Shown here in pieces: positions 10,993 to 56,600 of a stretch of 64,000 bases of DNA. A program made the translations under genes and the position numbers. Under the pieces are notes generated by a model. That model made no database searches and was not told the DNA's origin. It saw nothing but the letters and a program-made list of their open reading frames with translations. The stretch is from Candidatus Omnitrophota bacterium (lineage in GTDB: Bacteria; Omnitrophota; Gorgyraeia; Zapsychrales; Zapsychraceae): positions 205,547 through 269,546 of the forward strand of contig JBFWOS010000002.1 in the NCBI GenBank assembly GCA_050250375.1. Direction: 5' to 3'. Each line of letters opens with the position of its first letter. The first letter of the stretch is position 1.

Positions 10993-11014
10993 GAATACCA
11001 ATATAACAATTAGT

Positions 11015-12133
11015 ATGAAAAAAAATATTGCAGGGATGATTTTTCATCCACCAAATCTTGAAACTATTGATTCTGCTATTCGCTCATTATATCCAATGGC
11101 TAATACCGTTTATTCTAGGATATCTCCCTTTAGAAAAAAGGATATGTTGCGCAAAATTGCACCATTTAGATTGTTTTATTTGCGTAATATTCAATTTGCC
11201 CAAAATACAGGAATAGATTTAGTAGGCTATATGCTTCCTATGTTGCCAGAGCAAATGTTGATTTCTTCCGAGAATGCGAAAAAGAAAATAAATGAAATTA
11301 TTCATAAGGCTACCAATTTTGGCGTAGACGTAATAACCTTAGGTGCATTTACTTCTATCGTTACTAACCAAGGATTGGATGCACTAACTAGTAATCGAAT
11401 TAATATAACTAGCGGGAATACGTGTACTGCTGCCTTATGTATTCAATCGGTGTTAAAGTTGGTAAGAGTTTTAGAAATTGAGTTAACAAAATGTAATGTG
11501 GCAATCATAGGCGCGACTGGGGATATTGGTAGTATATGTGCGAAAGTATTAGTACGAAAATCTAAGAACGTATTCTTGTGTTCTCGAAATATTTCCGATT
11601 CCCAAGATTGGATTAAATTATTGAAAACTGAATTAGGTGAAAAAATCGTTGTTACGCAAGATATTAATAAATCGATTAAGAACGCAGATATAATAATTTG
11701 TGCTACAAGTTCCATTTCACCATTATTTGATATAAATGAGTTTTTACCCGGGACGATTGTTTGTGATTTATCAATGCCTCCAAACGTTGGAAAGAATCTA
11801 AAAGAGTTAAGAAGGGATATCTTGATATATGAAGGGGGGAGGGCTCAAATTCCAAATTATAAAGACATTCAAAGTAACGTGTGGAGCCATTTGTTTCCCA
11901 AGAATTCTATTTATGGATGTTTTATTGAATCGATAATCTTATCATTGGGGAACAAATTAGAGAATTTTTCCATTGGAAAAGGAAATATTACAGAAGAGAA
12001 GATTGATGAGATATATAATCTTGGTCTTAAATATGATATTGATATTGCTGATTACGGATTTGAGAATTATATATATACTGAAAAAGACTTAAAAGAATTT
12101 AAATTTAAAAGGAAAAGTTATGTTGGATCTTAA
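11015..12133 (+). CDS. long-chain acyl-[ACP] reductase (AAR)-family protein (aldehyde-forming)
   Basis: GVDVITLGAFTSIV / TSGNTCTAALCIQSV / VAIIGATGDIGSICAKVL / YGCFIESI align with cyanobacterial AAR (GIDISALGGFTSII / TTGNTHTAYVICRQV / VAVVGATGDIGSAVCRWL / HCFDID catalytic Cys) as recalled from memory. 372 aa. Confidence 0.65.
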   Translation: MKKNIAGMIFHPPNLETIDSAIRSLYPMANTVYSRISPFRKKDMLRKIAPFRLFYLRNIQFAQNTGIDLVGYMLPMLPEQMLISSENAKKKINEIIHKATNFGVDVITLGAFTSIVTNQGLDALTSNRINITSGNTCTAALCIQSVLKLVRVLEIELTKCNVAIIGATGDIGSICAKVLVRKSKNVFLCSRNISDSQDWIKLLKTELGEKIVVTQDINKSIKNADIIICATSSISPLFDINEFLPGTIVCDLSMPPNVGKNLKELRRDILIYEGGRAQIPNYKDIQSNVWSHLFPKNSIYGCFIESIILSLGNKLENFSIGKGNITEEKIDEIYNLGLKYDIDIADYGFENYIYTEKDLKEFKFKRKSYVGS

Positions 12134-14321: not shown

Positions 14322-14461
14322 AATAATAGAGATTCGGTTTGTTTTCTAAGAACCAGTCCTTTAAAATAATTGAACCTTCAGCACGGTTTTAAGTTGATAT
14401 TTAAAAGCTGATCACCTAAAGGTTTAGCGTAAATCACGATGAAGGTTAACCGGAGGAATAC

Positions 14462-14824
14462 ATGTCAAAACTGTTGATTGTCGATGATGAAACCGATATC
14501 CGCGAGTTCGCCAAAAGTTTTTTTAAGAAACGCGGGATAGAAGTCTCAACCGCCGGGGGCGGCAAAGAAGCGCTTCGTGCCGTCGAGAAAAATAATCCGG
14601 ACCTGATCCTGCTGGACATCACCATGGAGGATATGACCGGCGTGGAGGTGCTGAGGGCCTTGCGGGAAAATAAAAACGATGTCAAGGTGATCATGGTCAC
14701 GGGCATCGAAAACGAAGAAACAGTTAATGAAGCCAACAGCTGGGGGATCAAGGGATACATCCACAAACCCCTGATCCTGGAAGAACTCGAACAAATCGTA
14801 CTCGCGGAATTAAATGACAGTTAA
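14462..14824 (+). CDS. single-domain response regulator (CheY-like receiver)
   Basis: KLLIVDDETDIRE...LILLDITMEDMTGVEVL...IMVTG...KPL receiver motifs with phospho-acceptor Asp. Confidence 0.85.
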   Translation: MSKLLIVDDETDIREFAKSFFKKRGIEVSTAGGGKEALRAVEKNNPDLILLDITMEDMTGVEVLRALRENKNDVKVIMVTGIENEETVNEANSWGIKGYIHKPLILEELEQIVLAELNDS

Positions 14825-16019
14825 GCAGCCGATGATCAAAGTTGACTACAAAAAAGAGCTTGAAACAGCCAGCAAGGGCATGATCATGATCCATGATCCG
14901 AAACTGCTGATCAAGCTGATCGTGCGGATGATTGTAAGAAAACTGCGCATCAAACACGCCGCCATGATCCTCTATGAATCCGATTTTGACCGTTATGTTC
15001 TGAATATTTCCCGTGGAGAAACAGGGCACCGTATCCCGGTGGGTTTTACCAAGTTCAGCAAACAAAGCCCGATCATCAAATTATTCATTGATAAAGAATA
15101 CCGGCGCATTATCCAGGGGCGTAATGCCATCGTGGCTGAGGATATCAATCGGATTATTTGGAGGGAAAATGTCGTTGATAACGGCACCGGCAGCGGAGTA
15201 AAGGACCTCCTGCATAAAGTCAGCGAACAGATGGATGCGCTGAATTCGATTGCGTGCGTGCCGGCCTTTTACCAGGATAAATTGATGGCCGTCCTGTTGT
15301 TAGGGAATAAACACGACGAGTCCCGGTTTGCCCAGGAAGAACTGAATTTTTTTGCCGCCCTGGCCTCGGACGCCGCGATGGCGATCCGCAACGCGCAGTT
15401 ATTTAATGATCTCAGCCGCGAGGCCAAACGTAATCGCGAATTGTTTATCCAGACGATCATCGTCCTGAGTTCCACCATTGAGGCCAAAGACAAATACACC
15501 CACGGCCACACGGAACGGGTCACCAATTATTCCGTGTCTATTGCCCGCCAGATGACCGCCAACGGGAGCGCGGATTTTGATAACACTTTTTTTGAAAATA
15601 TTTATATCTCCGGTTTGCTTCATGATATCGGCAAGATCGCCATCCCCGAAAAGATCCTCAACAAGACCGGCCATCTTACGGAAGAAGAATATGAGATCAT
15701 GAAAAAACATACCATCAAGGGGGCGGAGATGATCCGTCCGCTTAACCTTCCGAAGGATTGCATCGACGGAATCAAACATCATCATGAACGCTTTGACGGG
15801 TGCGGTTACCCGGACGGGCTCATCGGTGGGGCGATTCCGATCACCGCGGCCATCATGGCCGTGGCCGATTCCTATGACGCCATGACTTCATCCCGTCCTT
15901 ACCGCAAAGGTATGAAAAAAGAAGACGCCCTCAATGAAATCAAGAAAAACGCAGGGACCCAGTTTAATCCCATCCCGGTCCGCGCCATGGTTGAGTTATA
16001 TAATCAGGGAAGGCTTTAG
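14814..16019 (+). CDS. GAF-domain HD-GYP phosphodiesterase (c-di-GMP)
   Basis: HTERVTNYSVSIA...LLHDIGKIAIPEKIL...HHERFDGCGYPDGL = HD and GYP signatures. Confidence 0.85.
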   Translation: MTVKQPMIKVDYKKELETASKGMIMIHDPKLLIKLIVRMIVRKLRIKHAAMILYESDFDRYVLNISRGETGHRIPVGFTKFSKQSPIIKLFIDKEYRRIIQGRNAIVAEDINRIIWRENVVDNGTGSGVKDLLHKVSEQMDALNSIACVPAFYQDKLMAVLLLGNKHDESRFAQEELNFFAALASDAAMAIRNAQLFNDLSREAKRNRELFIQTIIVLSSTIEAKDKYTHGHTERVTNYSVSIARQMTANGSADFDNTFFENIYISGLLHDIGKIAIPEKILNKTGHLTEEEYEIMKKHTIKGAEMIRPLNLPKDCIDGIKHHHERFDGCGYPDGLIGGAIPITAAIMAVADSYDAMTSSRPYRKGMKKEDALNEIKKNAGTQFNPIPVRAMVELYNQGRL

Positions 16020-16096
16020 CGTTTCTTGGGGGTATTGAGTTCGTTGGGTTTATAGGGTTAGTTTGTTGGGGTGACTCAAACAACTTAATAACACAA

Positions 16097-17743
16097 TCAA
16101 CCCAATTGACTTACAGGCAATTCAATGATTATTTCCGTCCCGATGCCGATTTTACTTTTAACTAAGATTTTTCCGTGATGGTTTTCAATGATTCCTTGGA
16201 CGATCGCCAGCCCTAGTCCGGTGCCGAAGTCTTTATTGGTAAAGAAAGGGTCGAATATCTGTTTGAGGTTTTCTTCAGCGATACCCACACCGGTATCTTT
16301 GATGGTGATTTGTACGATTTTATCGTGTTTGACAGAGGATTTGATTTGTTTGGGCAGCACCGCGGCCCCGATAAATAACTGCCCGCCGTCCGGCATGGCG
16401 TCAACCGCGTTGAGCATGATATTCAGCAGGGCCTGATGGATCTGGTTCGCGTCGAGTCTTAACGTCAACTGATCATCGAGGTTGATATTTCGCGAACACT
16501 GCACGTGACGGCTTAAGAAATTGTTGCTGAGGGTGTCGATGCTCTGATTCAGTAATTTTTTAACGGAAACATCGGTAAATTTGGGAGGGTTTGGTTTGGA
16601 GTACTCCATAAGCCGGTTGACGAGTTCACTGATCCGTTCAACTTCTTTGGCCGTAAGCCGTGAATATTTATTAATAAATTCACGATCGTTATGCCGGGCG
16701 GGCAGATATTCATTAAAAGTCTTGATCACCGTCAACGGATTCCGGATTTCATGAGCAATTCCTCCCGCCAGTGTGGCAAGGGTTTTGTATTTCTCAGTTT
16801 GGGCGACTTCTAGCCTTAATTTTTCGTTTTCGAGGGCGATTTCTTCTTGGGTTCCTCTAAAAAAGTATCTTTCTATATACTGTTGAATTCTATGTTGTAA
16901 AGGAATAAAAATTATTCCAAGAATAAATGCTGTAAATATATTAAAAAAGGGAGAATCATAGTTTAATTTAATTTTCAATGATTCACCAAAAGAAATAATT
17001 ATTAAAAGATAGAATAATGATATTACCGAGATCACTAAAGAATATATGAATCCTTTTTTAAGCGCTATAGTAATGTCCATCAGTTTGTATTTGACAGTTG
17101 CATATGCGTATATCCCGATAAATATCGTTGAAGGGAAAAATCCAACTGGATAGAATTCAAAACCATAATTTGGTATAAAATCAAGAATTGCAAAGTTCAA
17201 AATGAACATAGCCACCAATAGATATTTTATTTGGTTTCTTTCGCTCCATTCAGAAGAGTTAATCAAGACTTCAATGAAAACTTTATAAAGTGTTATCATC
17301 GGAATTATAAAGAAAATTAAGTAGAGTGGGTGGAGCCTTCCAGCAACGGGATAATAACCCCAATAGTAATTGTGGTAATAGTTCTGAATAATAAGGTTTG
17401 TATTAATTATTAAGAAACTAAGCGATATAAAGATAAAGTAAAATAATGGAAGTAGAATCTTATATTTTCTGGAGTTAAGAAGTTCAATGGTGTGGTGAAA
17501 ACAAAAAATTGGGATAAAAGTGATAAAACAATAAGCGGCTTTTAATAGTACAACGATTAAAGAATGGTGTTTTTTGTCTAGATTTAAAACTAGTGCATAG
17601 AGAAAGAACCATGCCGCGATCGAGAGACAAACAAAAAAAAATGTTATATTTTTTTTAGATTTTTTATTCTTACTTAATACAATAAATCCGAAGAAAATCG
17701 CGACTGTGGTACATACTAAGAGAGGGAGGCTATATAAATTCAT
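16097..17743 (-). CDS. sensor histidine kinase with N-terminal 7TM sensor domain
   Basis: HisKA LAGGIAHEIRNPLTVI; HATPase LNAVDAM, DTGVGI, GTGLGLAIV; AT-rich multi-TM N-terminus paralogous to 12120..14321. Confidence 0.85.
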   Translation of the reverse strand: MNLYSLPLLVCTTVAIFFGFIVLSKNKKSKKNITFFFVCLSIAAWFFLYALVLNLDKKHHSLIVVLLKAAYCFITFIPIFCFHHTIELLNSRKYKILLPLFYFIFISLSFLIINTNLIIQNYYHNYYWGYYPVAGRLHPLYLIFFIIPMITLYKVFIEVLINSSEWSERNQIKYLLVAMFILNFAILDFIPNYGFEFYPVGFFPSTIFIGIYAYATVKYKLMDITIALKKGFIYSLVISVISLFYLLIIISFGESLKIKLNYDSPFFNIFTAFILGIIFIPLQHRIQQYIERYFFRGTQEEIALENEKLRLEVAQTEKYKTLATLAGGIAHEIRNPLTVIKTFNEYLPARHNDREFINKYSRLTAKEVERISELVNRLMEYSKPNPPKFTDVSVKKLLNQSIDTLSNNFLSRHVQCSRNINLDDQLTLRLDANQIHQALLNIMLNAVDAMPDGGQLFIGAAVLPKQIKSSVKHDKIVQITIKDTGVGIAEENLKQIFDPFFTNKDFGTGLGLAIVQGIIENHHGKILVKSKIGIGTEIIIELPVSQLG

Positions 17744-18111
17744 TTATTTAATAGTTTTCGTATTGATTCAAGTATTTCCTTCGAATCAAACGGTTTGGTG
17801 ATGTATCCGTCCGCGCCTAGTTTTTTAATCTCACTGAGCAATTCAACCGACTGATATCCTGTTACAATGATGACTTTCTGCCCGGGATGTTTTTCTTTAA
17901 TTTCCTTAAGTGTATCCAGGCCGTTTTTGTTGGGCATTTTGATGTCCAGTAAGACCAAGCCGATATCGCCGGCGTTTTTCAGGCAGTCGAGACACTGATC
18001 GCTGTCTTCCGTCAGGATTAGTTCATAATGCTCTTCCAGGATCAGTCTCAGTGATTCGCGGATCCCCTCCTCATCATCACAGATCAGAATTTTTTTTGTG
18101 TTGGTGCTCAT
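17740..18111 (-). CDS. single-domain response regulator (receiver)
   Basis: KILICDDEEGIRE...LVLLDIKMPNKNGLDTL...IIVTGY...KPF; 4-nt ATGA overlap with the kinase. Confidence 0.85.
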   Translation of the reverse strand: MSTNTKKILICDDEEGIRESLRLILEEHYELILTEDSDQCLDCLKNAGDIGLVLLDIKMPNKNGLDTLKEIKEKHPGQKVIIVTGYQSVELLSEIKKLGADGYITKPFDSKEILESIRKLLNK

Positions 18112-22158: not shown

Positions 22159-22297
22159 ATATATACCGGCGCCCCCGCCGTCACTCGCCAAACCGTTCCC
22201 CCTTCAGAATCAATTAAATCAATTTATCGTGCCACGATACCCCCCGTATACTCGTGTCGTCTCAGTTAACAGGATTATTACGTTTGAGGAGGAGAGT

Positions 22298-25200
22298 ATG
22301 CGCCAGTGGGCTATTGTAATTTTTATCGGGATTTTCATGTCATCATTTTATCCGTCCAGCTTGTATTCCATGGAGAGCGGGGTCCGCAGCGGACTGGAGG
22401 ACCTTCAGGTTGATCCGCATTCGGGCAGCGCGTCAATGGCTTACCCGATTATGGTCCCGCCCGGAAGAGGAGGGATACAACCGAATCTTGCGATTACATA
22501 TAATTCCAATAATAAAAACGGCATGCTGGGAATGGGCTGGGGACTGGAGACCGGGGCGATCCTGCGTTCGTCCCGGAACGGAATCCCGAATTTTGACAGT
22601 TCCGATATTTTTGTTTTGAATCAGAACGGTTCCACCCAGAAATTGATGAAAGACAATACAACCGGATTTTATGTTCCTGAAATTGAAGGGTCTTTTCTTA
22701 AAATCGAAAAGCTGGCCGGCCACTGGCAGATTACTGACCGTTCAGGGATCAAATATTTTTTTGGTGAAGGTTCCGAGGACCGTGAAGAGGAAAACGGTCA
22801 GGTGATCAAATGGGCCCTCAATAAAGTTGAAGACCTTTACGGGAATTTTATGGAGATTGACTATTACAAAAACGGTAATACCCTTTACCCCAAAGAAATC
22901 CGTTACACCGGAAACTCTCAAGTCCCCTTAAGCCCTTATGCCAAAGTTGTCTTCGAGTATGATCAGACATCCCGGATGGATGTGCAAAGCACCTACATCA
23001 TGGGGATAAAACTGGTGACGGCCTGGCGTTTGCAGGGAATCAAAGTTTACGCGAAAGTCAACGGAACGGATAAACTTCAACGCCGGTACGAAATGATTTA
23101 TCAGTCCAGTCCGGTTACGGGACGGTCGCTCTTAACCGCGGTTAAACAGTATGGTAAGGATGATGCGTCCCAGCTTCCGGTCACTGCTTTTGCTTATGAA
23201 GATAATTCGGAAATAACAGAAGAATATTTGCCGGTCGTCCAGTTCGACTCCGCACTGACCGGCGGCGGGGATAAGATGTGGTACACCATGGTTCACGCAG
23301 GACAATTGTATGATCATAACGGGGCAACATTGTACCCGCAATACAACGGTAATATTTTCCAAGGGCGATTTTTACCTCAAGGACACATAATCAATTGGAT
23401 CGGCGCTTTTCTAAAAAAATCACATACTGATCACACATGGCATTGGGACATTAATAACACGACTGATGGAAGGTTGTGGTTTCAAGGGGTTAACGATACC
23501 GCGTTTAAGGCCTGGACCAACATTTATCTTAGTCAACAAAGGCAGGTCAATTTCAATTCTTCCGGGGCTCCGCATAAGATCTACATGGATCAGAATTACA
23601 GCCAGCCTCTGTCGGGAGGAAACAACACGATCAACGCGGGGTTTCATCTGATTGAAGTAGTCGCATATCAGCAATCCGGGGGAGAACACTACAGTTTTCA
23701 TGTCGGGACGGGATTGGCCGGGCAGGTGGATTACATGAATTCCGTTGTTGTCAGCGCGCCGGGTTTACCGGCGGATTTTAACGGCGACGGGTTTGTCGAT
23801 ATCGGGCGGTTCACGTCCAATGACGGCAAGATAAAAGTCATGCTGGCCAACGGAAATTCATTCGGGACAGAACAAGTGTGGCTGGACCAGATTGCGGCCG
23901 GAGAAGGTGTATTGACCGGAGATTTCAACGGTGACGGCAAGGCGGACATTGTCCGGTTTACCAAGTCTAGCGGAAATTGGAAGGTCGCGCTATCAAACGG
24001 CGGTAACCAATTCATTAATCAACCGAACAATTGGCTGCAGGGTTTCGGGCAGAATGAAGAGCCTTCCGCGGGTGATATCAACGGCGACGGGCTGACTGAC
24101 ATCTTTACGTTTTATAAATCCGGCGGGCAATGGAAGACCCGGGTCGCGTTAAACCAGGGCGGAAGTTTTGTTTCCGCCCCTGAATACACCTACACGATCG
24201 GGAACCAGAGCTTTACGCCGATTGTCGGTAATTTTAATGGGGACGGCCTGATTGATTTCGGGACATTTGATAAATTGAACGGCAGCTGGAACATCCTGTT
24301 AAACAAAGGGATCACCAGTGATCAATTTAATGCCCTGGCGCCGGTGACCAATTTCGGGGCCGGGCAGGTGATGGTGGTGGCGGATTTTAATGCCGATGGT
24401 CTGACGGATATCGGGTATTACAATCCATCCACCGGAAAGATCTCCAGCCGGGCTTCACACGGCGGCGGATTTTGTAATGAACGACTGCTTCCGGTCACTT
24501 TTACGATCACGGACTCCGGCGCCCAGGTCCAGGCCCAGGACTTTAACGGTGACGGTGTGGCCGACTGGGTGGTCTACGACACGTTTGGAAAATTTGAAAT
24601 CGCTTATTCAAATTCCCATGTACCGGATTTGCTGGTTTCCGTGGATAACGGGATTGGAGCGGGTACCGATATTTCTTATAATCCATCCACCGCGTATCCG
24701 AATACATCCCTGCCGTTTGTCGTGCCGGTGATTGAATCGGTCAGAACCAGTGTATTGAATGAAACGTATACGACACGGTACGAATATGCCGGCGGACTAT
24801 GGGACAGTGCGCAAAGAGAGTTCCGGGGTTTCGGGACAGTCATGGTCAAAGACCCGGAGAATAATTATTCGACCGCCTATTTTCTCCAGGATGATATTTT
24901 TAAAGGCCGGCCTCAAAGACAGGAGACATATGATTCAAACAATACTCTGTTTTCCAAAACCGTCAATACCTGGGACAGTCAGGTTTTGCCAAACGGCGCG
25001 AGGTTTGTCTTTCTAAAACGAAAAGACAATTTTGTTTTTGACGGAAATACAACCGGACGCCGTACGGCTGAAGAATTTTTCTATGAAGAGAACCCGCAAT
25101 ACGGGAATCTGACCAGGGCCGTTCAATTGGGAGAAGTTGACCTGCAAACAGGAGAGAACACCATCGGAAATGATACGCGAACGGTGGAAACGGTTTATGT

Positions 25201-28200
25201 GCGAAATACTTCGTCACCGAAATGGCTGATCGGATTGCCCGGACAAACCATTGTCCGGGATAACGCCGGGAACATCGTTCGGCAGACCTGGTTTTATTAC
25301 GACAATCACCCCAACGCGAACGACCAGCCTGACAAAGGATTGTTAACCAAAAAGATGGATTGGGCCGGAGGCGGAGCGCAGGACATTAACCCTGTCACAA
25401 CGTATTCGTACGATGCGTACGGAAATCTTAAAACAACCGTTGATCCGGTGGGGAATCAGACAAGTCCAGCGAATCATCAAACAACGATGATCTATGATTC
25501 CGTTTACCGGTTGTTTCCGGTCACAACCCAAAACGCGCTGGGGCACAGTGTGCAAAATAAATATTATGGAATTGACGGGGAATCGCTGGATGACGGGCAG
25601 GGTTACAGCGGATTATGGGGGCAGTTAAAATCAACGACGGATCCCAATAACCAGCAGGGCGGGCGCAGTTATGATGTGTTTGGCCGGACGGTTAAAAGCG
25701 TTTCACCGCTGGATACAATCAATTTTCCGACTACAGAATCGGGTCTGGAATATTTAACGGATCACGTCCGCGTGACCGGTAAACAACGCGTGAAACACGG
25801 GCAGGCCCAGGTCATCACCGCGGTCAGTTTTACCGATGGACTGGGAAGATCCATCCAGTCCAAATCACCGTCTTTCCTGGCCGGGCAGTATACGGTCAGC
25901 GGCCAGACGGAATACAACTCACGGGGTCTTGCCGTAAAACAGTACCTTCCCTATTTTACAACAACCGCCATGAACTCAATCAACTCAATTAACCCGGCCA
26001 ACCCGCACACGTCGATTGAATATGACGCCATGGGCCGGGTGGTCAAATCGGTCAATCCGGACGGAACGTATTCCACCATGAGTTATGATGACTGGCGAAC
26101 GGTTGCCATCAACGAAAACGGCCATAAACAGGAATCGAACTTTGACGCGTACGGGCGTCTGGTCGAAAAGAGGGAATACGCCGGAGCAGACGGGCGTAGT
26201 CCGGATTATCCGTTAGCCCCGTATGTGTTGTATGCCACGACAAAATATGAATACGATTCTGAAGGAAACCTGACGAAAACCATCGATGCCCAGCAGAACC
26301 AGACCGTGATCGCGTATGACAAGCTTGGCCGCAAGATATCCATGGATGATCCTGACATGGGGCATTGGGAATACAAATATGATGTGAACGGTAATCTGAC
26401 CGAACAGAAAGATGCCAACCTGAAAACAATCTTTTTTTCTTATGATGTTTTAAACCGGCTGACACGAAAATACGACAACAACGTCCTGGATGTCCAATAC
26501 ACCTACGACAGTCCGGCTGATTTTAATTCAAAAGGCCGGTTGACGCAGGCTGTTTATCCCGGCGGAGACGCTGAGTTCAAATACGACACCATCGGCCGCG
26601 AGATTGAATCGGTCAAACAGATTAACGGGATGGCGTATACGGTCCAGCGGAATTACGATGCGCTGAATAATCTGGTTGATGTCCAGTATCCGGACAGCTC
26701 GAAAGTGTTTTATCAATACAACGATGCCGGGCAGGTTGCGTGTGTATCCAGCTATGAAGTGTCGCAGCCGACAGCGCCTGTATCGCCTGTTTTGAATAAC
26801 CCTGTCCCGGGAAACATGCAGGTGTCCTTGTCCTGGAATTCAGTTTCCGGTGCGGATGGATACAAGGTTAAATACGGTACATCCGCGTCAAATCTGAACT
26901 CAACCAAAGAGGCCAATGCCGGCACAGAGATTGTTGTTGATGGATTAACCAACAGTGTTGAGTATTTCTTCACGGTCGTTGCTTACAATACTGTCGGTGA
27001 AAGCCTGCCGTCTGCGGTTAAGAACGCGACACCGCAGATGCCGATACTCGGACAACCCGCGATTATTTCCGCGGTTCCCTCAAACGGCAGTGTGGCCCTG
27101 AGTTGGGGAAATGTCAGCGGCGCAAACACCTACACGGTCAAATACGGGACGGTCAGCGGGAATTATCCGGACACAGTCTCTAATATCTCAGGCACTCAGT
27201 ATACCGTCAGCAATCTGACCAACGGCATACTTTATTATTTTGTCGTCTCCGCGGTCAATAGCGGCGGGGAAGGAATGAATTCGTCTCCCGCGTCAGCCGT
27301 TCCGGCCGCAGGCGGAGGCGGTACCATGGATATTGTCAGGGATGCCACGACGACGTTTACAGTGACGACGGAAACAAACGTCTCAATGAATCATGCTGTT
27401 TCCGCATCCGGGACCAACCGGATGCTGGTTGTGGCCGTTGAATTGCGGGACTCTTCACTGATTCCGCAGACAACGGCATTGACCTACGGCGGGCAGGCCC
27501 TGATACTGGCCGGCCGCGCGTCAAATAACAGCAGTTCCAGTTATCAGTTGACCAGTGAACTCTGGTATCTTATCAATCCGCCGGTTGGAAGTAATTCACT
27601 TCAGGGTGTATTCAACACGGACGTGAATGAAATCGCACTGCAGGTCACGTCCCTGCAAGGCGTCAAGCAGGCAGCGCCGGAAGTATTTGGCATGGATTCT
27701 GGTTCCAGTAATGCGCCGGGTATTTCAGTGAATACAGCCACGAACGAGGCCTGGGTGATTGACGCGTTGACATTTAAAGCGGCCTTTGAATCGTGGGTCA
27801 CCATCGGTTCCGGACAGACATTGTTAGGCCAGAATGATATGGGCAATGTTTTCGGAGGATCATCGTATAAAATGGTCAGTCCCTCCGGTGCGGCTGTCAT
27901 GCAATGGAATACGACCTTCTCGGACAAATGGGCGACGGTCGCGGCTGTGTTCGCGCCGGCGCCGTTATCCGCCGCGCTGGTGCAGGAGGACGGGAATCAC
28001 TATGTTTATGATTATTGTCCGGACCTTTCTCCAACCGCGAAGGAAAATGATTGGTCGCGGTTAGGCCGAATGGTCATAGAGTTCGGCCGTTCATTCACCG
28101 GGCTGTTTACGGCCAAGGAAGCCTACGCGGATGAACTGGGCACGGTGAGTTTTAATTCTTTTTCGGAAGAGGATCCAACGTCCCAGATCAATCGATCTGC

Positions 28201-41005: not shown

Positions 41006-42472
41006 ATGTCCGAATATCCACACAAAAAGCTGATCACAGGATCGATTGAAAACGCATCCATCATGCGCAAGTTTACGGTCCTTTTTCTTCTTATGTCGAT
41101 GGTGCCGATGCTGGTGCTGTTCTATTTTTATTGGAATTTCAGAACGACCGGAAACCTGATGATTACCGAGACGTCATTTAATGTCGCCTTGATCTTTATT
41201 GTCTGCGGGGTTACCTTAGGTTATGCCTCGATGCGTAATGTTGTGCAGGCCCTGATCGATCTGAACCGGGCGAACACCAAGGCCCTGCAGCGGGTGTTGA
41301 CCCCTGAAAAGGTTGATGAACTGGCGAACGAACAAAATGAGATTACGGCTTTGGCGCAGTCTTTTAAGGCCATCACGGAACGGCTGGAAGAAAATGTCCG
41401 CAGCCTTGAGCTGGCCAAGAAAACACTGCATTCGGTCATGTCCCGGGTCGGCCACGGGATTTCCAACATGCAGAATATTGATAATTTCCTGGAATTGATT
41501 TTGGAAACCGTCATTAAGGCTTTATCCGGAAAGACCGGGATTATTCTGGTTTATGATAAAGACACGCAGCAGTTAGTCGTGAAAATGGCTTTCGGGGTTG
41601 ATGTAGAGAAGAGCACCAATATCCGGCCGATTAAAATTTCAGAAGGTTCCCGCATCAAGGAAATTCTCAAGACGAAAGGGCCCCGGGTGTTTCAGGAAAC
41701 GTTCCCGGAGTTTACGTCCAAGTATTACAAGAAATTTGTCGATGGCCCGTTCATTTGTACTCCGTTATTAGTCAAGGATAAACCAAAGGGGCTGATGATT
41801 GTCAACCATAATGATCCCAACGGAACATTTGATAATGACGAAATCAACCTGTTTTTCAACCTCGCCTCGCAAACGGCCGTCGCGATCGAGAATTCTCTTC
41901 TCAGCCATGATATTGAATCGACCTATTTTGAGACCATTTCAGCCCTGGCATTGGCGGTTGACGCCAAGGACAGGTATTCCCGCGGGCACCTGGACCGGGT
42001 CGCCCACTATTGTGTGATGATCGCCAAGAAAATAGGGCTGGATGAAGATGATGTCAAGACATTACGCGACGCGGCCCGTCTGCATGACCTGGGGAAAATC
42101 GGCATCCCGGATGAGGTCCTTTGCAAACCCGGCCCGTTGACCGACCAGGAATGGATCCTGATGAAACGCCATCCGGAAATCGGGGAGACAATCATCAAGC
42201 CGATCACATCCCTGCGGCATTTGTGCGATCTGGTCAGGCATCATCATGAAAAGCTGGACGGTTCCGGTTATCCTGATGGACTAAAGGCGGACGAAATTTC
42301 GCCTCTGGTCCGTATCATGACGGTGGCGGATATTTATGACGCGATTACAACCGACCGGCCGTACCGCGACCGGATGAGTCAGGAACAGGCCAGCGCTGAA
42401 TTGCGGAAAATGAAAGATCAGCTGGACCAGGATATCGTTGAGTCCTTTATTGAAGCGTTGAATGAGGCATAA
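41006..42472 (+). CDS. membrane-anchored GAF-domain HD-GYP phosphodiesterase
   Basis: TM segments, coiled-coil/HAMP-like linker, GAF-like domain; HD-GYP: RGHLDRVAHYCVMIA...LHDLGKIGIPDEVL...HHHEKLDGSGYPDGL. Confidence 0.85.
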   Translation: MSEYPHKKLITGSIENASIMRKFTVLFLLMSMVPMLVLFYFYWNFRTTGNLMITETSFNVALIFIVCGVTLGYASMRNVVQALIDLNRANTKALQRVLTPEKVDELANEQNEITALAQSFKAITERLEENVRSLELAKKTLHSVMSRVGHGISNMQNIDNFLELILETVIKALSGKTGIILVYDKDTQQLVVKMAFGVDVEKSTNIRPIKISEGSRIKEILKTKGPRVFQETFPEFTSKYYKKFVDGPFICTPLLVKDKPKGLMIVNHNDPNGTFDNDEINLFFNLASQTAVAIENSLLSHDIESTYFETISALALAVDAKDRYSRGHLDRVAHYCVMIAKKIGLDEDDVKTLRDAARLHDLGKIGIPDEVLCKPGPLTDQEWILMKRHPEIGETIIKPITSLRHLCDLVRHHHEKLDGSGYPDGLKADEISPLVRIMTVADIYDAITTDRPYRDRMSQEQASAELRKMKDQLDQDIVESFIEALNEA

Positions 42473-42528: not shown

Positions 42529-43458
42529 ATGGGACGAATTTTAGAGATTAACGGTGAATATTACGTCGAATTTTACGGAAACGGTCTGCGTTTCCAGAAA
42601 AAAGCCGGACCATCCTATGAAGAAGCTGTCCGGAAATTAAAATCGATCGAAGAGTCTTTAGAAACAAGCGCCCTTAAGGTGGACCCTGCCGCCGTAACGG
42701 TCGATTTGTTCCGAGAGCGGTATCTGTCTTTTTGTGAACAGGTGCACCCGCCTAAGACGGCTGCCCGGTTCAAACAGACCCTGGCTCATTTTATGCGGTT
42801 TCTTGAACCGCATTTGTCCGGGGATAGGTATCTTCCGGAAATAACCCCCCGGATGATTGAATTGTATAAAGAAAGTCTTCTGAAACAATATCCCTATCGG
42901 CCGCATCTGGTCAACTTCACCCTGTACCTGATCAGGGATATCCTGCAGTACTGCATTACTCTCGGCTGGCTGAATGATAACCCGACGCTGCATACGCCGT
43001 TTCTTAAAACCTCAAGAAAATATTCTCCGCGTATTTATTCGGACGGGCAGATCAAGGCCCTTGGTTCCGGTTTAAGTGAAAAAGACCGTCTGGTTTTTGA
43101 ACTTTTGTTAGGGTCCGGGATGACGCTGGATGAACTGAAACAATTAACGTGGGAACATATCAATATCAAGTCGCAGAGCATTGAAGTCGAAACAGGTTTT
43201 CCGGACAAGTCGTATACCCGGATCGTTCCCATGGATTATCACCTGCTGGAACTCATCAAGATCATAAAAGAAAAGAACCCGGGGGATCGGCTGGTTTTTA
43301 AGAATCCAGAACTTGCCGACGGGATTAACCCGGGAATTCTAAGAAATACGTTTGCCAAGCGGTTAATCGAACGAGGTGTATCCCTGTCCCAATTGTACAA
43401 ATTGCTCGGGGCGGATGACATCGCCAAGGTTTTCCGGTATCAGGTGTTCCTGCCGTAG
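42529..43458 (+). CDS. tyrosine-recombinase/phage-integrase-like protein with apparently divergent catalytic motifs
   Basis: N-terminal SAM-like core-binding region; C-terminal ...GILRNTFAKRLIERGVSLSQLYKLLG...VFRYQVF resembles the Int box II region but His appears replaced (RNTF rather than RHTF). Confidence 0.5.
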   Translation: MGRILEINGEYYVEFYGNGLRFQKKAGPSYEEAVRKLKSIEESLETSALKVDPAAVTVDLFRERYLSFCEQVHPPKTAARFKQTLAHFMRFLEPHLSGDRYLPEITPRMIELYKESLLKQYPYRPHLVNFTLYLIRDILQYCITLGWLNDNPTLHTPFLKTSRKYSPRIYSDGQIKALGSGLSEKDRLVFELLLGSGMTLDELKQLTWEHINIKSQSIEVETGFPDKSYTRIVPMDYHLLELIKIIKEKNPGDRLVFKNPELADGINPGILRNTFAKRLIERGVSLSQLYKLLGADDIAKVFRYQVFLP

Positions 43459-43484: not shown

Positions 43485-45182
43485 ATGCCCAGGATCGTGT
43501 ATCACCTTATCGCGCTGCTGATGATTACCTCCGGCGCATGGTTTGTATACGGGCAGACCTTACACTATTCCTTTCATTTCGACGATTATTATTTCATTAC
43601 CGAGAATCTGAAGATAAGGGACATCACCCAGGTCCGCGATATCTGGCATTCGCTGGGCAAACCGTCCAGGTTTCTGGGAATGTACAGCTTTGCCCTGAAT
43701 TACCATTTTTCTCAAGCGGATGTATTCGGTTACCATCTGGTTAATATCCTTATCCATATGGTTAACGGATTCCTGGTTTACTGGCTGATCCTTTTGACTT
43801 TGAGGACAAGGCCCGGATGGGCCGAAGGGCGAAGAATGTTGGCGGTGTCGACGGCGCTTTTGTTTGTCTGTCATCCGATGAATACCCAGGGTGTAACCTA
43901 TATCTCCCAGCGGTTCGCTTCAATGGCAACCCTTTTTTATCTGTCAGCCTTATGTTTTTATATACAGGGCCGTTTGACCGCGGGGAACAAAGGGAAGCTG
44001 TTTTTTGTTTTTGCTTTTTTATCCGCCGTTTTGGGGATGTTTACCAAACAGATCGTGCTGACATTGCCGGTCTGCATTTTGGTATACGAATACTGTTTTC
44101 TGGATGCGGACAAAAGAATAAAAATATTTCGCTGGCCGTATTTGTTGATTCTGTTGGGATTGTTTTTGATTGTGCCGACCCTGCATTCATGGGATTTCAG
44201 CCGGCTTTTTGATGCCAGGATCGAATCACGTTCCCATTCCGGCGACATCCTGACGAGTTACACCTATATGCTGACGCAGTTCAGGGTAATCCCGCTGTAT
44301 ATCCGGATGATGTTTTTTCCCATCGGGCAGACGCTGGATTATGATTTCCCGGTGTCCACGCAGTTCTGGACATGGCCGGTCTGCAGCGGGATGGTGTTTA
44401 TCTTTTCGGTTATAGCTGCCGCCGTGATGCTGCTCAGACGCAGTCCGCTGATCGGTTTCGGGGTGCTCTGGTTTTTTCTCACACTCGGGATTGAATCAAC
44501 GATCATCCCGATTTATCAGGTGATCTTTGAACACCGCTGTTATTTGCCCGGCATCGGTTTGTTATTTGCTTTTAATATATTTATGTGGCAGTCTTTCAAA
44601 TCCCGTAAAAAATATCTTGCCGGGATCACGCTGATCATCATCGTATTTGCCTGGACCGCGTTCAAACGCAATCAGGTCTGGGAAAATGAAACGACTCTGT
44701 GGAAGGATATTAAACAGAAAGCCCCCCGGAAAATGCGGCCCTATATTCATCTTGGTGTTTCTTATATCATGAAAGGCGATTACGACCTGGCCCTCAATGA
44801 ATTCAATGAGGCCCTTCAAATCAGCCGGGATGATTATAAAATTTATCACAACCGGGGGATCGCGTTTGAGATGAAGGGCGATCTTGAACAAGCTGAAAAA
44901 GATTACACCCGGTCGATCGAATTGAACCCCGGATCGGCGGTGAGTTACACCAACCGGGGCACTGTTATGGTCAAGTTAAAGCGGTATAATACGGCCCTGC
45001 GGGATTATAATAAAGCGATTGAACTGAAGCCGGCGTACGCGGATGCGTATGTCGGGCGGGGAAATTTGTATTATCTCGCCGGCCGTTATGAAAAAGCCCT
45101 GGATGACCTGGTCAGGGCCAAAGAACTCGGCAGTCCGATTGAAGAGAGTGAAATAGATAAAGTGAAACAATTGACCCGATGA
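43485..45182 (+). CDS. DUF1736/TMTC-like GT-C-fold membrane protein with C-terminal TPR repeats (paralogue 1)
   Basis: N-terminal polytopic domain with FHFDDY loop motif, GYHLVNILIHMVNG and HPMNTQGVTYISQRFASMATLFYL. C-terminal 3-4 TPRs (YHNRGIAFEMKGDLEQAEKDY...). Confidence 0.7.
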   Translation: MPRIVYHLIALLMITSGAWFVYGQTLHYSFHFDDYYFITENLKIRDITQVRDIWHSLGKPSRFLGMYSFALNYHFSQADVFGYHLVNILIHMVNGFLVYWLILLTLRTRPGWAEGRRMLAVSTALLFVCHPMNTQGVTYISQRFASMATLFYLSALCFYIQGRLTAGNKGKLFFVFAFLSAVLGMFTKQIVLTLPVCILVYEYCFLDADKRIKIFRWPYLLILLGLFLIVPTLHSWDFSRLFDARIESRSHSGDILTSYTYMLTQFRVIPLYIRMMFFPIGQTLDYDFPVSTQFWTWPVCSGMVFIFSVIAAAVMLLRRSPLIGFGVLWFFLTLGIESTIIPIYQVIFEHRCYLPGIGLLFAFNIFMWQSFKSRKKYLAGITLIIIVFAWTAFKRNQVWENETTLWKDIKQKAPRKMRPYIHLGVSYIMKGDYDLALNEFNEALQISRDDYKIYHNRGIAFEMKGDLEQAEKDYTRSIELNPGSAVSYTNRGTVMVKLKRYNTALRDYNKAIELKPAYADAYVGRGNLYYLAGRYEKALDDLVRAKELGSPIEESEIDKVKQLTR

Positions 45183-47146
45183 AAAATAAAATCATCCTTC
45201 AGCACTTTTTTGCGGTTGTCCTTATCGGTATTCTGGGACTGGCGGTTTATTCAAATTCGTTTGATGCCAGTTTCCATTTTGATGATTATACCTACATCGT
45301 TAACAAAAAAGAGATCAGGGATCTGGGTGACATCCGGGCGATTTACAGGGCCCTGGGCCACCCGTCAAGATTCATTGCGTTCTGGACGTTCGCCCTCAAC
45401 TATCACATACACCGTTTTGATGTGTTCGGTTATCACCTGGTGAATTGGTTTATTCATTTTTTCAACAGCATCCTTGTTTACGGGCTGGTTCAGCTGCTTG
45501 TCCTTCTGCCAAAAATAAAAGAGGAACAACGGACTGCGGATGTTTACCCGCTGGCGTTTTTTTGCGCGTTAATGTTTCTGGTCCACCCGGCCCAGACCGA
45601 GGCGGTGACGTACATCGTGCAACGGTTTACATCTTTGGCGGTTTTGTTTTATTTAATCGCGATTATCTCCTACCTGAAAGGACGTTTGAGCCAGGGGATA
45701 AAGCGTGCTGTTTATTTCGGGGTGTTCGGTGTATCGGCTGTGCTGGGGATGTTCACTAAACAGATCTGTTTTACAATACCGTTTATGGTCTTATTCATTG
45801 AATGGCTGATGATTTCCTCCAGCTTGTCCCAGATGATCAGGAAACGCTGGAAGATGTTGATTGTCCTTACTCTGCTTGGGCTGGTGATCCCGTCGTTTTT
45901 CGGGTTTAATTCCTCCGGCATCATCGGGCGTGAATTCGCTTCGAGATCACACACGCCGGATATCATTAATACGAAGACATATTTCCTGACCCAGTCCCGT
46001 GTCATCCCGACGTACATCCGGCTTTTGTTTGTTCCGGCCGGGCAGACCCTGGATTATGATTTTCCCGTTTCAAGCCGTTTGTTCGACGCGAAGGTGATCG
46101 CCGGTTTTCTATTTTTATCCGCTCTGGCCGGTATCGCCTTCGGGTGTATTCGCCGGTACAAACTGATCACCTTCGGCATTGGCTGGTTTTTCCTGACGAT
46201 TTCAGTCACCTCAAGTATTATCCCGATCCCGCATGTTATCTTTGAACATCATATGTACCTGCCGTCGGTCGGATTTATTCTGGTTTTTAATCTTTTGGTT
46301 CTGGCCTTGATGAAAACACGCGGACGGTATTCTGCTTTGATGGGCCTGGTCATTTTCTTGTTTTCGGTGCTGACGTACCAGCGCAACGAGGTTTGGAGGA
46401 CAGATATCAACTTATGGACGGACATCGTCAAGAAAGCCCCGAACAAAGTCCGGGTCTGGAATAACCTGGGGATGGCGCATCTGGAAAATGAGGACTATGA
46501 AAAAAGCATCGAGTGTTTCAACCGGGCCCTGTCGATGAATGAAAACGCGGCCAGGGTTTATAATAACCGCGGATTAGCCTACGCCGCCCTGAAACAGGAC
46601 AAAGAGGCCTTCGCTGATTTCAATCAGGCGATCAGTCTTTACCGCCATAACCGGGAGACTAATCCGGATCTTGGGAAGAAAGTGTGGGCCGAGATTTTCA
46701 ATAACCGCGGTGATTTGTATATAAAACATAAAGATTTTCAGCCGGCCCTGGACGATTTTAAAGAAGGGTACTCGATCGACCCGCAGAATGAACGTATCCT
46801 GTATAACCTGGGGTATGTTCATGAATTTTCCAAACAATTCGATCAGGCCCGTCTTTTTTATGAACAATCGATCGCGGCCAACCCGGAGTTTATCAAACCT
46901 TATGTCGGCCTCGGGTTCGTCCATCATAATCAGGGAAACAATGACGGAGCCCTCACGTATTACAACAAAGCCCTGGTGATAGACCCTCAGAACGGGGAGG
47001 CGTATTATTTCCGGGCGATTGTTTTGTATGAAATGGGGCGCAAAAAGGAGGCCTCCTCGGATATGAGGTTGTCCGTGGACCTGGGATTCGAGGCGCAAAG
47101 TGAAGAACTGCGAGATGTCCGGAGAAAAATTTTAAATATGGATTAA
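45179..47146 (+). CDS. DUF1736/TMTC-like membrane protein with C-terminal TPR repeats (paralogue 2)
   Basis: FHFDDYTY, GYHLVNWFIHFFNS, HPAQTEAVTYIVQRFTSLAVLFYL; TPRs; 4-nt overlap with paralogue 1. Confidence 0.7.
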   Translation: MKNKIILQHFFAVVLIGILGLAVYSNSFDASFHFDDYTYIVNKKEIRDLGDIRAIYRALGHPSRFIAFWTFALNYHIHRFDVFGYHLVNWFIHFFNSILVYGLVQLLVLLPKIKEEQRTADVYPLAFFCALMFLVHPAQTEAVTYIVQRFTSLAVLFYLIAIISYLKGRLSQGIKRAVYFGVFGVSAVLGMFTKQICFTIPFMVLFIEWLMISSSLSQMIRKRWKMLIVLTLLGLVIPSFFGFNSSGIIGREFASRSHTPDIINTKTYFLTQSRVIPTYIRLLFVPAGQTLDYDFPVSSRLFDAKVIAGFLFLSALAGIAFGCIRRYKLITFGIGWFFLTISVTSSIIPIPHVIFEHHMYLPSVGFILVFNLLVLALMKTRGRYSALMGLVIFLFSVLTYQRNEVWRTDINLWTDIVKKAPNKVRVWNNLGMAHLENEDYEKSIECFNRALSMNENAARVYNNRGLAYAALKQDKEAFADFNQAISLYRHNRETNPDLGKKVWAEIFNNRGDLYIKHKDFQPALDDFKEGYSIDPQNERILYNLGYVHEFSKQFDQARLFYEQSIAANPEFIKPYVGLGFVHHNQGNNDGALTYYNKALVIDPQNGEAYYFRAIVLYEMGRKKEASSDMRLSVDLGFEAQSEELRDVRRKILNMD

Positions 47147-53657: not shown

Positions 53658-56600
53658 TTGAGTGTCATGAAACGGCGAAACAAATCTGTCATTTGGTTTT
53701 TAATTTTTAATTTATTCAGCGCGCCATGTGCGTACGGCGTTGTTGATCCTTCTTATCAGAATTTTATGGCCGAGGCCAGGGCCGCGTTCGATAACAATGA
53801 TTATGTAAAAGCCTTATTTTATATCCAGTCCGCCCAGCAGGCCGACCGGTCCAGCCTTGAACCGTTTGAACTATCCGAACAAATCCCGCCGTTAACCAGA
53901 CATTATAAATCATTAAATTTTTTCTTTAACCTGGCGACGAAATATTATTACAAAGGGGATTACCAGTCCGCCCGTTTTTATTATGAAAAGGCCTACGCCG
54001 TCGACCCTTCAGTCCCCGGCCTGCAGGAAATGGCCGACCACGCGGACAGGGTTATCCTGGGGATGGAGCCGCCGCTGTTCACGCCCCGGGAACCCGTTTT
54101 TCAGGATATTGAAACAGATCCGGTTGTCGCCGGCCGTTTATCTCAGGAAGAAACCAAACAGGGACGGCGTTATGCTGTTCCGCACAACCAGGAAGTCGAA
54201 GATATCATTGCCAAGTATCAGGGACAGTCTCCTGAACATAAGAAATCAGTCCAGGCGGTCAGGACGCCGGATCAGGAAGACAAGATCCATGTCCTGAGCA
54301 CGACGGACCAGACACCCCAGCAATACCGCAAAACATTTATCCCGGTTGCTGCCGGCCGCAAGATGCCGGTGACCCAGATCCCCCGGGCGATGGAAAAGGA
54401 CACCGTCGCGAAGGAAACAGAATATTCCGCATATCAGCGCAAGAAAGCCGTCATCCTGTCCAAGCAGGAGGAACGGCTGGCCTCGACAAATAAAGAGACC
54501 ATCGCGGCGCAGGAAATGATCGAGCTGGATGCGGAGTTGTGGAGCCAGCAGCCCGGCACGGTCCTGGAGATCGAGTTCGGCAAGTCAGTCATTCTGCACG
54601 GGCGCCAGGTCCAGCAGTTCCTGGTGTTTGACCCGGACATGCTTATCGCCCAGCGGATGGACAATGACAGTGTCTTAATCACCGTTCAGCAGCGGGGATC
54701 GACTTTGTTTCATCTCTGGGACGGCCAGGGCCGGTGGACTTTTAACGTCAAAGGGGTGCTTCCGGAAATACAATTAACCAAGGCCCAAATGAACGAAGAC
54801 CATCTGGAGAAACACGTCCGGCCGTTTCGGGTCAGTTATGCGAATAACTGGAACAGTTTTTATCTGGGGCAAAGTATTCCGGAGCTGGAGCGGCGCAATC
54901 TGAGTTTTACCCAATGGGTCGGCGTATACGGGGAGACGCCGCACGGGTTCCTGGATGCATCCGGGAATTTTTTCAAGTTTGACGAATCAACCGAAAATAC
55001 CGGACGCACCGTGGGTTTGAGCAACGCCAATCTCGGTCCGTTCGAGGATTTTTCCATCCGCGGCTGGGACGCTTCCAAACGGTTTTCAAATTTATCGCTT
55101 CCGGGGCGGTCCTTCCGGGGGATATTATTCGACTCATACACGCTGGACCGCAATGTTCAATTCACTTATCTGAAAGGACAGGACCGGGCCAACTTCCGGC
55201 AGATCTCCGAGGGCACGGTCGAGGTCAGGAAGTCCTACATTGAAGGCGGGAGGATCACACTTTTTCCCGACCAGGAAAATAAATATTCGATCAATTACGC
55301 CCGCGGCCATGGGGAAGAACGGCCGAAGACGTTAAAAGACAAAGTGTTTTCCGTTGAGGCGGTCAATAAATTCGGCGCGGTGGACACGCACTTTGAAGTC
55401 GCCTGGGATGAACAGGATTTCGGCGAACTGCTTTTGACCAAATACGAACAGGACGACCTGGTCTTCAGGGTCAATGTCCGTGACCTGAACCCGGGATTTA
55501 AGACCATCACCTCACGTCCTTCAGGGGCGGGAGAGGTCGGCGGGAATATCGTGTTTGAATATTCTCCCGAGGAATACTCGCTGTCATCCAATCTGGATAT
55601 TTACCGGGACCGGGACCTGGCCAATCCGGAAAAACCGAACAGTGTCAATTATGATTTCGGGACGGTTTTCGGCATGCCGCTGACCGACACTTTGAGCTGG
55701 AACAATTCCTTCTTTTATTCGAATACACCGCAGATCGTTTCGCCGCATGAATCGTTAAGGTTCAATACGACGTTGACGAAATCGTTTGAGATCTTTAATC
55801 AAAAAACAATCACGGCATTTTTGGGCGGCAGTATTCAGCGCAGCCGTTATGACCGGTCTTCGTCCGCCGAATATGATCGGATGGGGTTAAGCCTTGGGGT
55901 CAGGTTCCCTATCGTAAAAAATTTAAATTTCTTCTCGAGTTATGATTATTCCTGGGTGGATGTCCTTGAGTCGGGTGAAATGAGCCAGCCGAATGTCATG
56001 AACACCGGATTGAGTTATTATCAAAGTTTCGGCAGCAAGTTGTCCGGCCGGTTGAGTACGACCTACCGGAATGAAGAAGACACGGACGCGGACTTCAGCT
56101 TTTTGTCCGGGACGGACACCCTGCGGCATAACATCGGATTCAGTTACCGCCCGTCTCCCGAAGTGGAGATCTTTATGGACGGCAGTATCCGCAATGTCTG
56201 GCGGGAAAATCCGGAGCGCGAGGCTTATAATGACGCGGATATCAGAGTCGGCATGCGCACCAGCTGGGAAACGATTTTCCGCTGGGACCCGACGGCCACG
56301 ATCACCGGGACGGTGTACAAGGATTTAAACCGGAATTCCAAACAGGACGCGGATGAACCCGGCCTTGAGGGGATTGAAATACAGCTCGGGCGAAAGACCG
56401 TCAAGACCAATTACCGGGGGCGTTACTCCAGCAAAGTCCGGGCGCAGGAGGTCAAGGTCGGGGTCAATTTCGACAGCGTGCCGAAAGGGTATTCGTTATT
56501 ATCTTACCTGATGAAAGACATTCACATTGAGAACGGACGGACCTACACCATCGACTTCGGATTCATCACCCGCTCGGGGATCTTCGGCGTGTTCTTTGTG

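Follow-up and report, generated by a model that had tools for sequence, protein, structure and literature searches.

The TMTC1-4 proteins of animals, which combine a TMTC_DUF1736 domain with tetratricopeptide repeats (TPRs) and are assigned to CAZy family GT105, are protein O-mannosyltransferases of the endoplasmic reticulum that act on cadherins and protocadherins, with polyprenyl-P-Man as the donor and Ser/Thr of folded, cadherin-type beta-sandwich domains as the acceptor. TMTC1-4 are also disease genes (cobblestone lissencephaly, hearing loss). As of a 2021 analysis, their transferase activity had been inferred, not reconstituted (PMC7801869). Prokaryotic TMTC homologues have been mentioned in passing in the literature. 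Among bacterial enzymes, the group IV pilin O-arabinofuranosyltransferase TfpW of Pseudomonas aeruginosa O-glycosylates pilin (bioRxiv 10.1101/2020.04.19.049825). Here we describe five genes, called A to E, in a 64,000-nucleotide stretch of DNA from Candidatus Omnitrophota bacterium (assembly GCA_050250375.1, contig JBFWOS010000002.1, positions 205,547 to 269,546 of the forward strand), which we refer to as the window and whose own numbering is used below. Profile comparisons confirmed that proteins A-E, as judged from their sequences, belong to the TMTC family (GT105) in the broad sense, with homology across the entire catalytic domain.

The five genes lie on the forward strand in two tandem arrays. 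In the first array, open reading frame (ORF) A (43485-45182, 565 aa) encodes a TMTC-type GT-C membrane domain (approximately residues 1-402) and, after it, about 163 aa of TPRs (about four repeats). In ORF B (45179-47146, 655 aa) the same type of domain spans residues 1-409, the TPR part that comes next has about 246 aa, and FEHH stands where the family has FEHR. The preliminary description had placed a tandem pair at 43485-47146, and those coordinates proved exact for both genes. The second array consists of ORF C (59507-61747, 746 aa), which has the longest TPR module at about 336 aa, ORF D (61744-63690, 648 aa), with a TPR module of about 240 aa, and ORF E (63705-64000), of which the first 98 codons are in the window and the full protein has 717 aa (locus L081:11962-14115). 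ORFs A, B, C and D belong to one subfamily. Both A/B and C/D share 4 bp (ATGA), the start codon of the second gene overlapping the stop codon of the first. The count of five paralogues in 20 kb given in the preliminary description also holds, with the qualification that E runs off the window and is of a different subfamily.

Identity among the membrane domains of A-D (first ~400 residues) is 40-44%, which, on sequence grounds, points to old duplications. Their TPR modules (163, 246, 336 and 240 aa in A, B, C and D) are only 29-38% identical, in line with the earlier suggestion that the paralogues had diverged and carry differing TPR modules. A Pfam search, which had been named as the check on the predicted C-terminal TPRs, bore the prediction out: TPR_1 matched A at 4e-29, B at 5e-39, C at 3e-57, D at 6e-52 and E at 9e-34. 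The NCBI product name for A, B and D is "tetratricopeptide repeat protein", and D is identical to database protein P0060.

For the comparison with animal proteins, we used the N-domains of 12 TMTC1-4 proteins (human, zebrafish and fly) as aligned by Eisenhaber et al. in the supplement to their 2021 paper (PMC7801869), together with a bacterial profile, A1, built from 36 diverse bacterial N-domains. The A1 profile matched all 12 animal TMTCs over profile positions 10-405, with E-values from 4.5e-38 to 7e-27 (search space 10^6). In the other direction, the animal profile matched B at 1.1e-23, C at 1.5e-22, D at 7.7e-22, A at 4.9e-13 and full-length E at 1e-41, and positions 5-431 of this hidden Markov model (HMM) aligned to residues 10-403 of B. 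Alignment of A1 with the animal set by hhalign gave a probability of 100% and an E-value of 9.1e-40 over 376 columns at 25% identity.

The order of the motifs is identical in animal TMTCs and in the bacterial family. In the first extracytoplasmic loop (EL1), F.(F/Y/H)DD of the animal proteins corresponds to F.FDD of the bacterial ones, and a second EL1 motif, SHKSYRP..L.F.LNY, to HPSRF...TFALNYH. The counterparts that follow (animal form first) are YHLVN..LH and GYHLVN..IH in transmembrane helix (TM) 2, LLFAVHPIHTEAV and LLF..HP.QT(E/Q)AV at TM3/EL2, CKEQGIT and TKQI.FT in EL3, LLL.P..L..DW and RLLF.P..QNLDYDF in EL4, AERVLY.PS.G(F/Y) and FEHR.YLPS.GF in EL5, and RN and RN.VW after TM11. The sole part not shared with the animal TMTCs is the first half of EL4 (DNPA...); the loop itself has the same position and length in the bacterial family, and its helix and the "LL.P..L.D(Y/W)" segment align in full-domain comparisons. 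Of the motifs quoted from A and B in the preliminary description, FHFDDY (residues ~31-37) and GYHLVN..H (near residue 84) are present in both proteins. B alone matches the third, HP.QTE.V.Y..QR, in full (HPAQTEAVTYIVQR); the corresponding stretch of A is HPMNTQGVTYISQR.

The same domain is missed by the curated databases. Pfam PF08409 (TMTC_DUF1736) gave no match to the isolated N-domains of A-D or E at E<=10 and none in the 36 family members at E<=1. That the negative is genuine is shown by a positive control: in the same library the N-domains of human TMTC3 and TMTC4 matched PF08409 at 1.1e-31 and 8e-33, with nothing else significant. An HMM restricted to the DUF1736 segment of animal TMTCs scored at most 7.6 bits on A-E and 120 homologues, and none of the best 120 homologues of ORF E carries PF08409. 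NCBIfam returned no match to a TMTC catalytic domain, and with full-length A-D both Pfam and NCBIfam gave TPR matches only, in the C-terminal parts, which accounts for the database names and is compatible with the homology. For the first 400 residues of A-D taken alone, Pfam gave no PMT, PMT_2, DUF2723 or Wzy_C match at E<=10, and the MIR domain is absent from A-E in the Pfam scans. Across the 36 family members, Pfam gave one PMT match (1.7e-5), one PMT_2 match (0.002) and sporadic weak GtrII matches.

The reason for the miss is that the Pfam entry covers only the 75-residue TM7-TM8 (EL4) loop, which has diverged in bacteria, so Pfam and NCBIfam overlook the bacterial family. The "DUF1736 + TPR" architecture proposed in the preliminary description is therefore not literally correct for A-D: the equivalent TM7-TM8 loop is present in a diverged form, its PF08409 signature is undetected, and the Pfam search for DUF1736 or PMT_2 that had been put forward as a check came back empty even at E<=10. 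By sequence, A-D fall outside the narrow Pfam (DUF1736) definition of a TMTC and lack two TMTC-specific residues. Much of the family, which comprises ~97,000 clusters, is probably named "TPR protein", PilF, PilW or TadD in databases. JGI names some relatives "protein O-mannosyl-transferase".

Neither phmmer nor hmmsearch with the A1 profile found a match among PDB sequences, which puts the fold beyond the reach of sequence search; ArnT, the best PDB template for TMTCs, was undetected by the profiles even with all filters off. An AlphaFold2 model of B residues 1-409, made with the A1 alignment, is confident (mean pLDDT 89.8, pTM 0.92). It has 11 TM helices, with helical elements in the long outer loops 1 and 4. 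A Foldseek search of the PDB with this model returned ArnT, Pmt4, AglB, STT3A, DPY19, EmbB, ALG3, PglB and Pmt1/2 at probabilities of 0.94-1.0, with modest TM-scores (0.37-0.50) for these GT-C neighbours. Below the GT-C set there were only unrelated transporters and G-protein-coupled receptors, at probabilities of 0.2 or less. The predicted structure has the GT-C membrane fold, with its conserved TM1-7 module and long EL1 and EL4. The claim that these are TMTC-like polytopic GT-C proteins is confirmed independently by the TMTC profile comparison, by the structural neighbours of the model and by the conserved TMTC hallmark residues considered below.

These results bear on the idea that A-E are not glycosyltransferases at all. 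They might be TPR scaffolds with a polytopic membrane anchor, oligosaccharyltransferases of the O-antigen-ligase/Wzy_C type, or non-catalytic GT-C relatives like PIG-U. We consider this whole group of explanations highly improbable. An identity as an O-antigen ligase or Wzy_C O-oligosaccharyltransferase (PglL, PilO/TfpO) was rejected, as neither the Wzy_C domain nor the matching fold was found.

The short loops predicted to be cytoplasmic contain 9 Lys+Arg in 35 residues, versus 3 in 40 for the short periplasmic loops. The N-terminus is MKNK, there is no hydrophobic segment beyond TM11, and the TPRs begin ~10-15 residues after TM11. From this charge bias, the lack of a further hydrophobic segment and the position of the TPRs directly after TM11, the N-terminus is predicted to be cytoplasmic and the DD loop and TPR domain periplasmic, like the lumenal orientation of the TMTCs.

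All of A-E have FDD or WDD in the first extracytoplasmic loop. Residues D35, D36, R64, H86, N89, H136, P137, Q148, R149, K194 and E356 are invariant across the 36 diverse members and align with the TMTC DD, SHKSYRP, HP.HTE, K219 and AERV positions. In the predicted topology, 29 of the 34 invariant positions of A1 fall either in a periplasmic loop or in the third of a helix nearest the periplasm. The counterparts of these residues in TMTCs and ArnT have been assigned roles in acceptor, metal and lipid-phosphate binding (PMC7801869). Within this shared pattern there are local differences. ORFs A-D have HP.(Q/N)T(E/Q) and QRF(T/A)S and lack the EL2 Asp (GRAD; D169 of TMTC1), and the EL3 lysine, K194, is invariant. 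The Glu of TMTC "AERV" aligns; the TMTC Arg aligns with the near-invariant His357, and the bacterial Arg358 comes one residue later. Of 116 family members matched by regex, 101 have FEHR. At position 358, a candidate lipid-phosphate ligand site, ORF B and the three orthologues nearest to it (P0002-P0004, >=65% identity) have His (FEHH), and more distant B orthologues keep Arg.

We think it fairly likely that A-E are inner-membrane GT-C glycosyltransferases that transfer a sugar from a lipid phosphate to a periplasmic acceptor, most plausibly proteins selected by the TPRs. By homology, a cytoplasmic GT2 enzyme would make a polyprenyl-monophosphate sugar, which would then be flipped to the periplasm and bound in a groove beside the TM7-TM8 loop. 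Acting as the catalytic base, the first Asp of the DD pair would activate the acceptor hydroxyl, and a single sugar would be transferred in the periplasm. The putative active site on the periplasmic face would comprise the DD pair, HPSRF, YHLVN..H, HP.QT(E/Q), the TKQ lysine, the LDYDF loop and FEH(R/H). The TPR solenoid, which is expected to be periplasmic because it comes directly after TM11, would recruit the acceptor, most plausibly Ser/Thr of exported or envelope proteins. Since the TPR modules differ among the paralogues, their clients probably differ as well, as for animal TMTC1-4.

In this scheme we infer catalysis, a lipid-phosphate donor, a protein acceptor and a selector role for the TPRs. 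The function put forward in the preliminary description, a protein or glycan transferase whose TPRs recognize the substrate, is plausible. Mannose as the sugar is suggested only by analogy with the animal enzymes. A protein acceptor is likewise suggested by analogy: those experimentally studied GT-C enzymes with extracytoplasmic TPRs that we examined (TMTC1-4, TMEM260 and TfpW) all act on proteins. For TMEM260, the literature reports that its TPR domain is sufficient for binding of the acceptor peptide.

The paired genes raise the question of whether each enzyme works by itself. Translationally coupled tandem genes could encode a heteromeric enzyme like Pmt1-Pmt2 or POMT1-POMT2, in which one partner (e.g., ORF B, with its FEHH) is catalytically weak and serves mainly in substrate binding. 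The 4-bp overlaps in A/B and C/D would fit such an arrangement, as would the confinement of the R358H change to the ORF B clade, and the PMTs, the nearest structural relatives, act as dimers (PDB entry titles). In a 57%-identity relative, the A-B pair is kept with the same lengths (565 and 655 aa) and the same 4-bp overlap, which we count as a sign of selection. Tandem arrays of at least two copies within ~6 kb were found at 19 of 80 loci, with up to six consecutive copies (L004). However, the other 61 loci have a single copy within that distance, neither A nor B has lost the DD pair or any of the remaining invariant residues, and Arg358 persists in the more distant B orthologues. We regard a heteromeric enzyme as quite improbable.

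In ORF E, a ~60-residue cytoplasmic N-terminal extension precedes the TMTC-type GT-C domain, which is of a second subfamily, and TPRs follow. Its motifs are FIWDDN, KHSSYRP, HPVHTEAVTYISGRAD and MAEHWLYVPSMG, and it has both HPVHTE and GRAD. It matched the A1 HMM at 5.4e-50, and on PMT_2 it scored 27.6 bits, just over the cutoff of 26.1. To place the two subfamilies, we took 120 homologues each of the B type and the E type. Their median scores against the animal TMTC profile were 83 bits for the B-type set and 143 bits for the E-type set. HP.HTE was present in 0/120 B-type and 91/120 E-type sequences, and GR.D in 0/120 and 93/120, respectively. As far as sequence can tell, the E-type subfamily is nearer to the animal TMTCs than the B-type subfamily to which A-D belong. 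The extension of ORF E has weak helix-turn-helix matches (HTH_23, E 1.2e-4; Sigma70_r4_2, E 1.1e-3; "SAKEIAARLNIKERTVQRLI"), and the fusion of such an extension to a glycosyltransferase is an odd combination.

Array 2 continues beyond the window with two further genes (L081:14112-16303). The first overlaps E by 4 bp (ATGA) and encodes a 509-aa GT-C protein that matches PMT_2 (9.5e-19) and PMT (2.2e-10) and has no TPRs; neither the A1 nor the animal TMTC profile detected it. A Methyltransf_23 gene follows, giving the order C-D-E, PMT-like gene, methyltransferase. This suggests that array 2 is part of a larger glycosylation operon.

The family is very large. Among cluster representatives at 50% identity, the A1 profile matched 96,963 at E<=1e-3, 71,884 at E<=1e-10 and 23,544 at E<=1e-30, and because this domain profile reaches so many proteins, the relatedness of A-D is far beyond chance. 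Two short peptide patterns recovered at least 593 loci in species-representative genomes, from Omnitrophota, Latescibacterota, Bacteroidales, Planctomycetales, Nitrospirota, Thermodesulfobacteriota and Saprospiraceae, and including the cultured Geomonas paludis. The locus is in this sense ordinary: it holds further members of a very large bacterial family and implies no unusual mechanism.

Gene neighborhoods were surveyed through 123 immediate flanking ORFs in 78 loci of relatives. The commonest neighboring Pfam family was Glycos_transf_2 (9/123); DUF2304 and pilin-type N_methyl each occurred in 3/123. All nine neighboring GT2 proteins best matched polyprenyl-P-monosaccharide synthases (PpgS, AglJ, Dol-P-hexose transferase, ArnC and PgfS), every one of them under the equivalog cutoff. 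Sugar-nucleotide genes (an epimerase and a GDP-mannose dehydratase) were also among the neighbors. The association with GT2 is limited to relatives, since no such gene adjoins the arrays in the window. Together with the PMT-type GT-C gene and the methyltransferase gene of array 2, these synthases beside relatives speak indirectly for the lipid-phosphate donor of the scheme above.

These neighbors are also what would be expected if A-E belonged to three-component glycan-modification systems (polyprenyl-P-sugar synthase, flippase and GT-C enzyme), which is the main rival to a protein acceptor. The acceptor would then be a non-protein one, such as lipid A/core, O-antigen, exopolysaccharide or a peptidoglycan-linked polymer, and the TPRs would dock on envelope machinery. 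GT2 polyprenyl-P-sugar synthases and DUF2304 proteins, as found beside the relatives, are a hallmark of such systems (PMC11194591). The neighboring epimerase and GDP-mannose dehydratase fit as well, and close structural neighbors include the ArnT, GtrC-type, Emb and Aft enzymes. Set against the protein specificity of the TPR-bearing GT-C enzymes named above, we judge a glycan or lipid acceptor somewhat unlikely.

Several points weigh against a TMTC-like protein glycosyltransferase, which we nevertheless prefer. Among bacterial GT-C enzymes, many act on lipids or glycans and not on proteins. The absence of the DUF1736 signature, established by the PF08409 negative, and the replacement of the GRAD Asp in A-D mean that the substrate chemistry may differ from that of the TMTCs, and the His at position 358 of ORF B and its closest orthologues alters a candidate ligand site. 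No polyprenyl-P-sugar synthase (GT2), flippase, pilin or evident client gene adjoins either array in the window, and our literature search found no functional study of any bacterial family member.

A more specific picture can be drawn tentatively. The genes may make up a periplasmic, domain-specific O-glycosylation system in which isoenzymes with their own TPR modules, some of them coupled as heterodimers, modify exported beta-sandwich or repeat proteins, and the E-type enzymes would represent the prokaryotic stock of the animal cadherin O-mannosylation enzymes. We rate this combination as rather unlikely in full. The value of the findings lies in an explained annotation gap, in two subfamilies of which the E type is nearer to the animal TMTCs, and in recurrent tandem arrays. 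A whole-domain HMM could re-annotate a large share of "TPR protein" entries as glycosyltransferases. A profile search of our PDB copy found no solved structure of any family member, and bacterial members, including those of cultivable Geomonas, could be tractable for the structure and enzymology of TMTCs.

The surroundings of the first array are partly conserved. The 57%-identity relative of A-B shares the upstream M48-TPR peptidase, serS, HD-GYP and 311-aa genes and the downstream response regulator gene. A tyrosine-recombinase-like gene (42529-43458, forward strand) lies 27 bp upstream of ORF A and has a partial Phage_integrase match (E 2e-11) and a SAM-like domain. We considered whether it marks the edge of a mobile element and rejected this: the relative has a 311-aa gene in the same position and flanking order (a comparison of position only, not of orthology).

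Between the arrays, a gene on the forward strand (53658-56861) encodes a 1067-aa protein with a signal-like N-terminus, one TPR, a T2SS/T3SS pilN-type domain, SdrD_B-like C-terminal domains and a long uncharacterized middle. This large envelope protein could conceivably be a client of the GT-C enzymes. Between this gene and array 2 are a HigB-like toxin gene (57711-58001, forward strand) and an HTH_3 antitoxin gene (~58005-58283, forward strand); the region around the pair, 56.9-58.4 kb, is nearly devoid of long ORFs.

Elsewhere in the window, a 2827-aa ORF (22229-30712, forward strand) has SpvB, TcdB_toxin_midN, FG-GAP, RHS-repeat, DUF6443 and fn3 domains and resembles a Tc-toxin or an Rhs-type polymorphic toxin. 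An overlapping 211-aa ORF (30709-31344) with no Pfam match comes next and might encode an immunity or partner protein. The regions 12120-17743 and 41006-42472 encode two HisKA_7TM 7TM-receptor histidine kinases, two GAF-HD-GYP proteins, which are probable cyclic di-GMP phosphodiesterases, and several stand-alone receiver domains. The GC content is 0.34-0.39 at 10001-14000 and 16001-18000, versus 0.45-0.52 elsewhere.

Compared with described systems, A-D differ from the PMT/POMT enzymes (GT39; PMT, PMT_2 and MIR) in lacking a PMT or PMT_2 match and the MIR beta-trefoil and in having C-terminal TPRs instead. ArnT (GT83), the lipid A aminoarabinose transferase, has no detectable sequence similarity to them, acts on a lipid and has no TPR domain. 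The TMEM260/DUF2723 O-mannosyltransferases, for which distant bacterial homologues have been reported in the literature, also join an 11-TM GT-C core to an acceptor-binding extracytoplasmic TPR domain. However, in those enzymes a Rossmann-like domain separates TM11 from the TPRs, A-D have no DUF2723 match, and the start of the TPRs ~10-15 residues past TM11 leaves no room for such an intervening domain. The Synechococcus pilin glycosyltransferase "Ogt" was rejected as a comparator, being a soluble GT41 enzyme with N-terminal TPRs and not a GT-C protein.

TfpW, compared through its published description only, is alike in architecture to A-E: it has ~650 aa and 11 TM helices, its N-terminus is cytoplasmic, and it carries an essential DDx in periplasmic loop 1 and a large periplasmic TPR domain at the C-terminus. 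By the same description, ArnT is its best template, its donor is a polyprenyl-P-sugar and its acceptor is a protein. It differs in gene position, as tfpW comes immediately downstream of pilA but neither array in the window has an adjoining pilin gene, and in that TfpW also polymerizes its glycan.

The animal TMTCs differ from the bacterial proteins in several respects. The DUF1736 loop signature (DNPA...DW) is undetectable in the bacterial proteins, and the conserved Arg is one position later in the bacterial family (EHR versus ER). ORFs A-D have HP.QT(E/Q) for HP.HTE and lack the GRAD Asp; ORF E has both. In the bacterial periplasm an undecaprenyl-type phosphate sugar would take the place of Dol-P-Man as the donor, and the bacterial genes are in overlapping tandem arrays. 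What the two groups share is the same 11-TM domain, predicted for the bacterial proteins to have the N-terminus in and the C-terminus out, TPRs straight after TM11, and the presence in one genome of several paralogues whose TPR modules differ.

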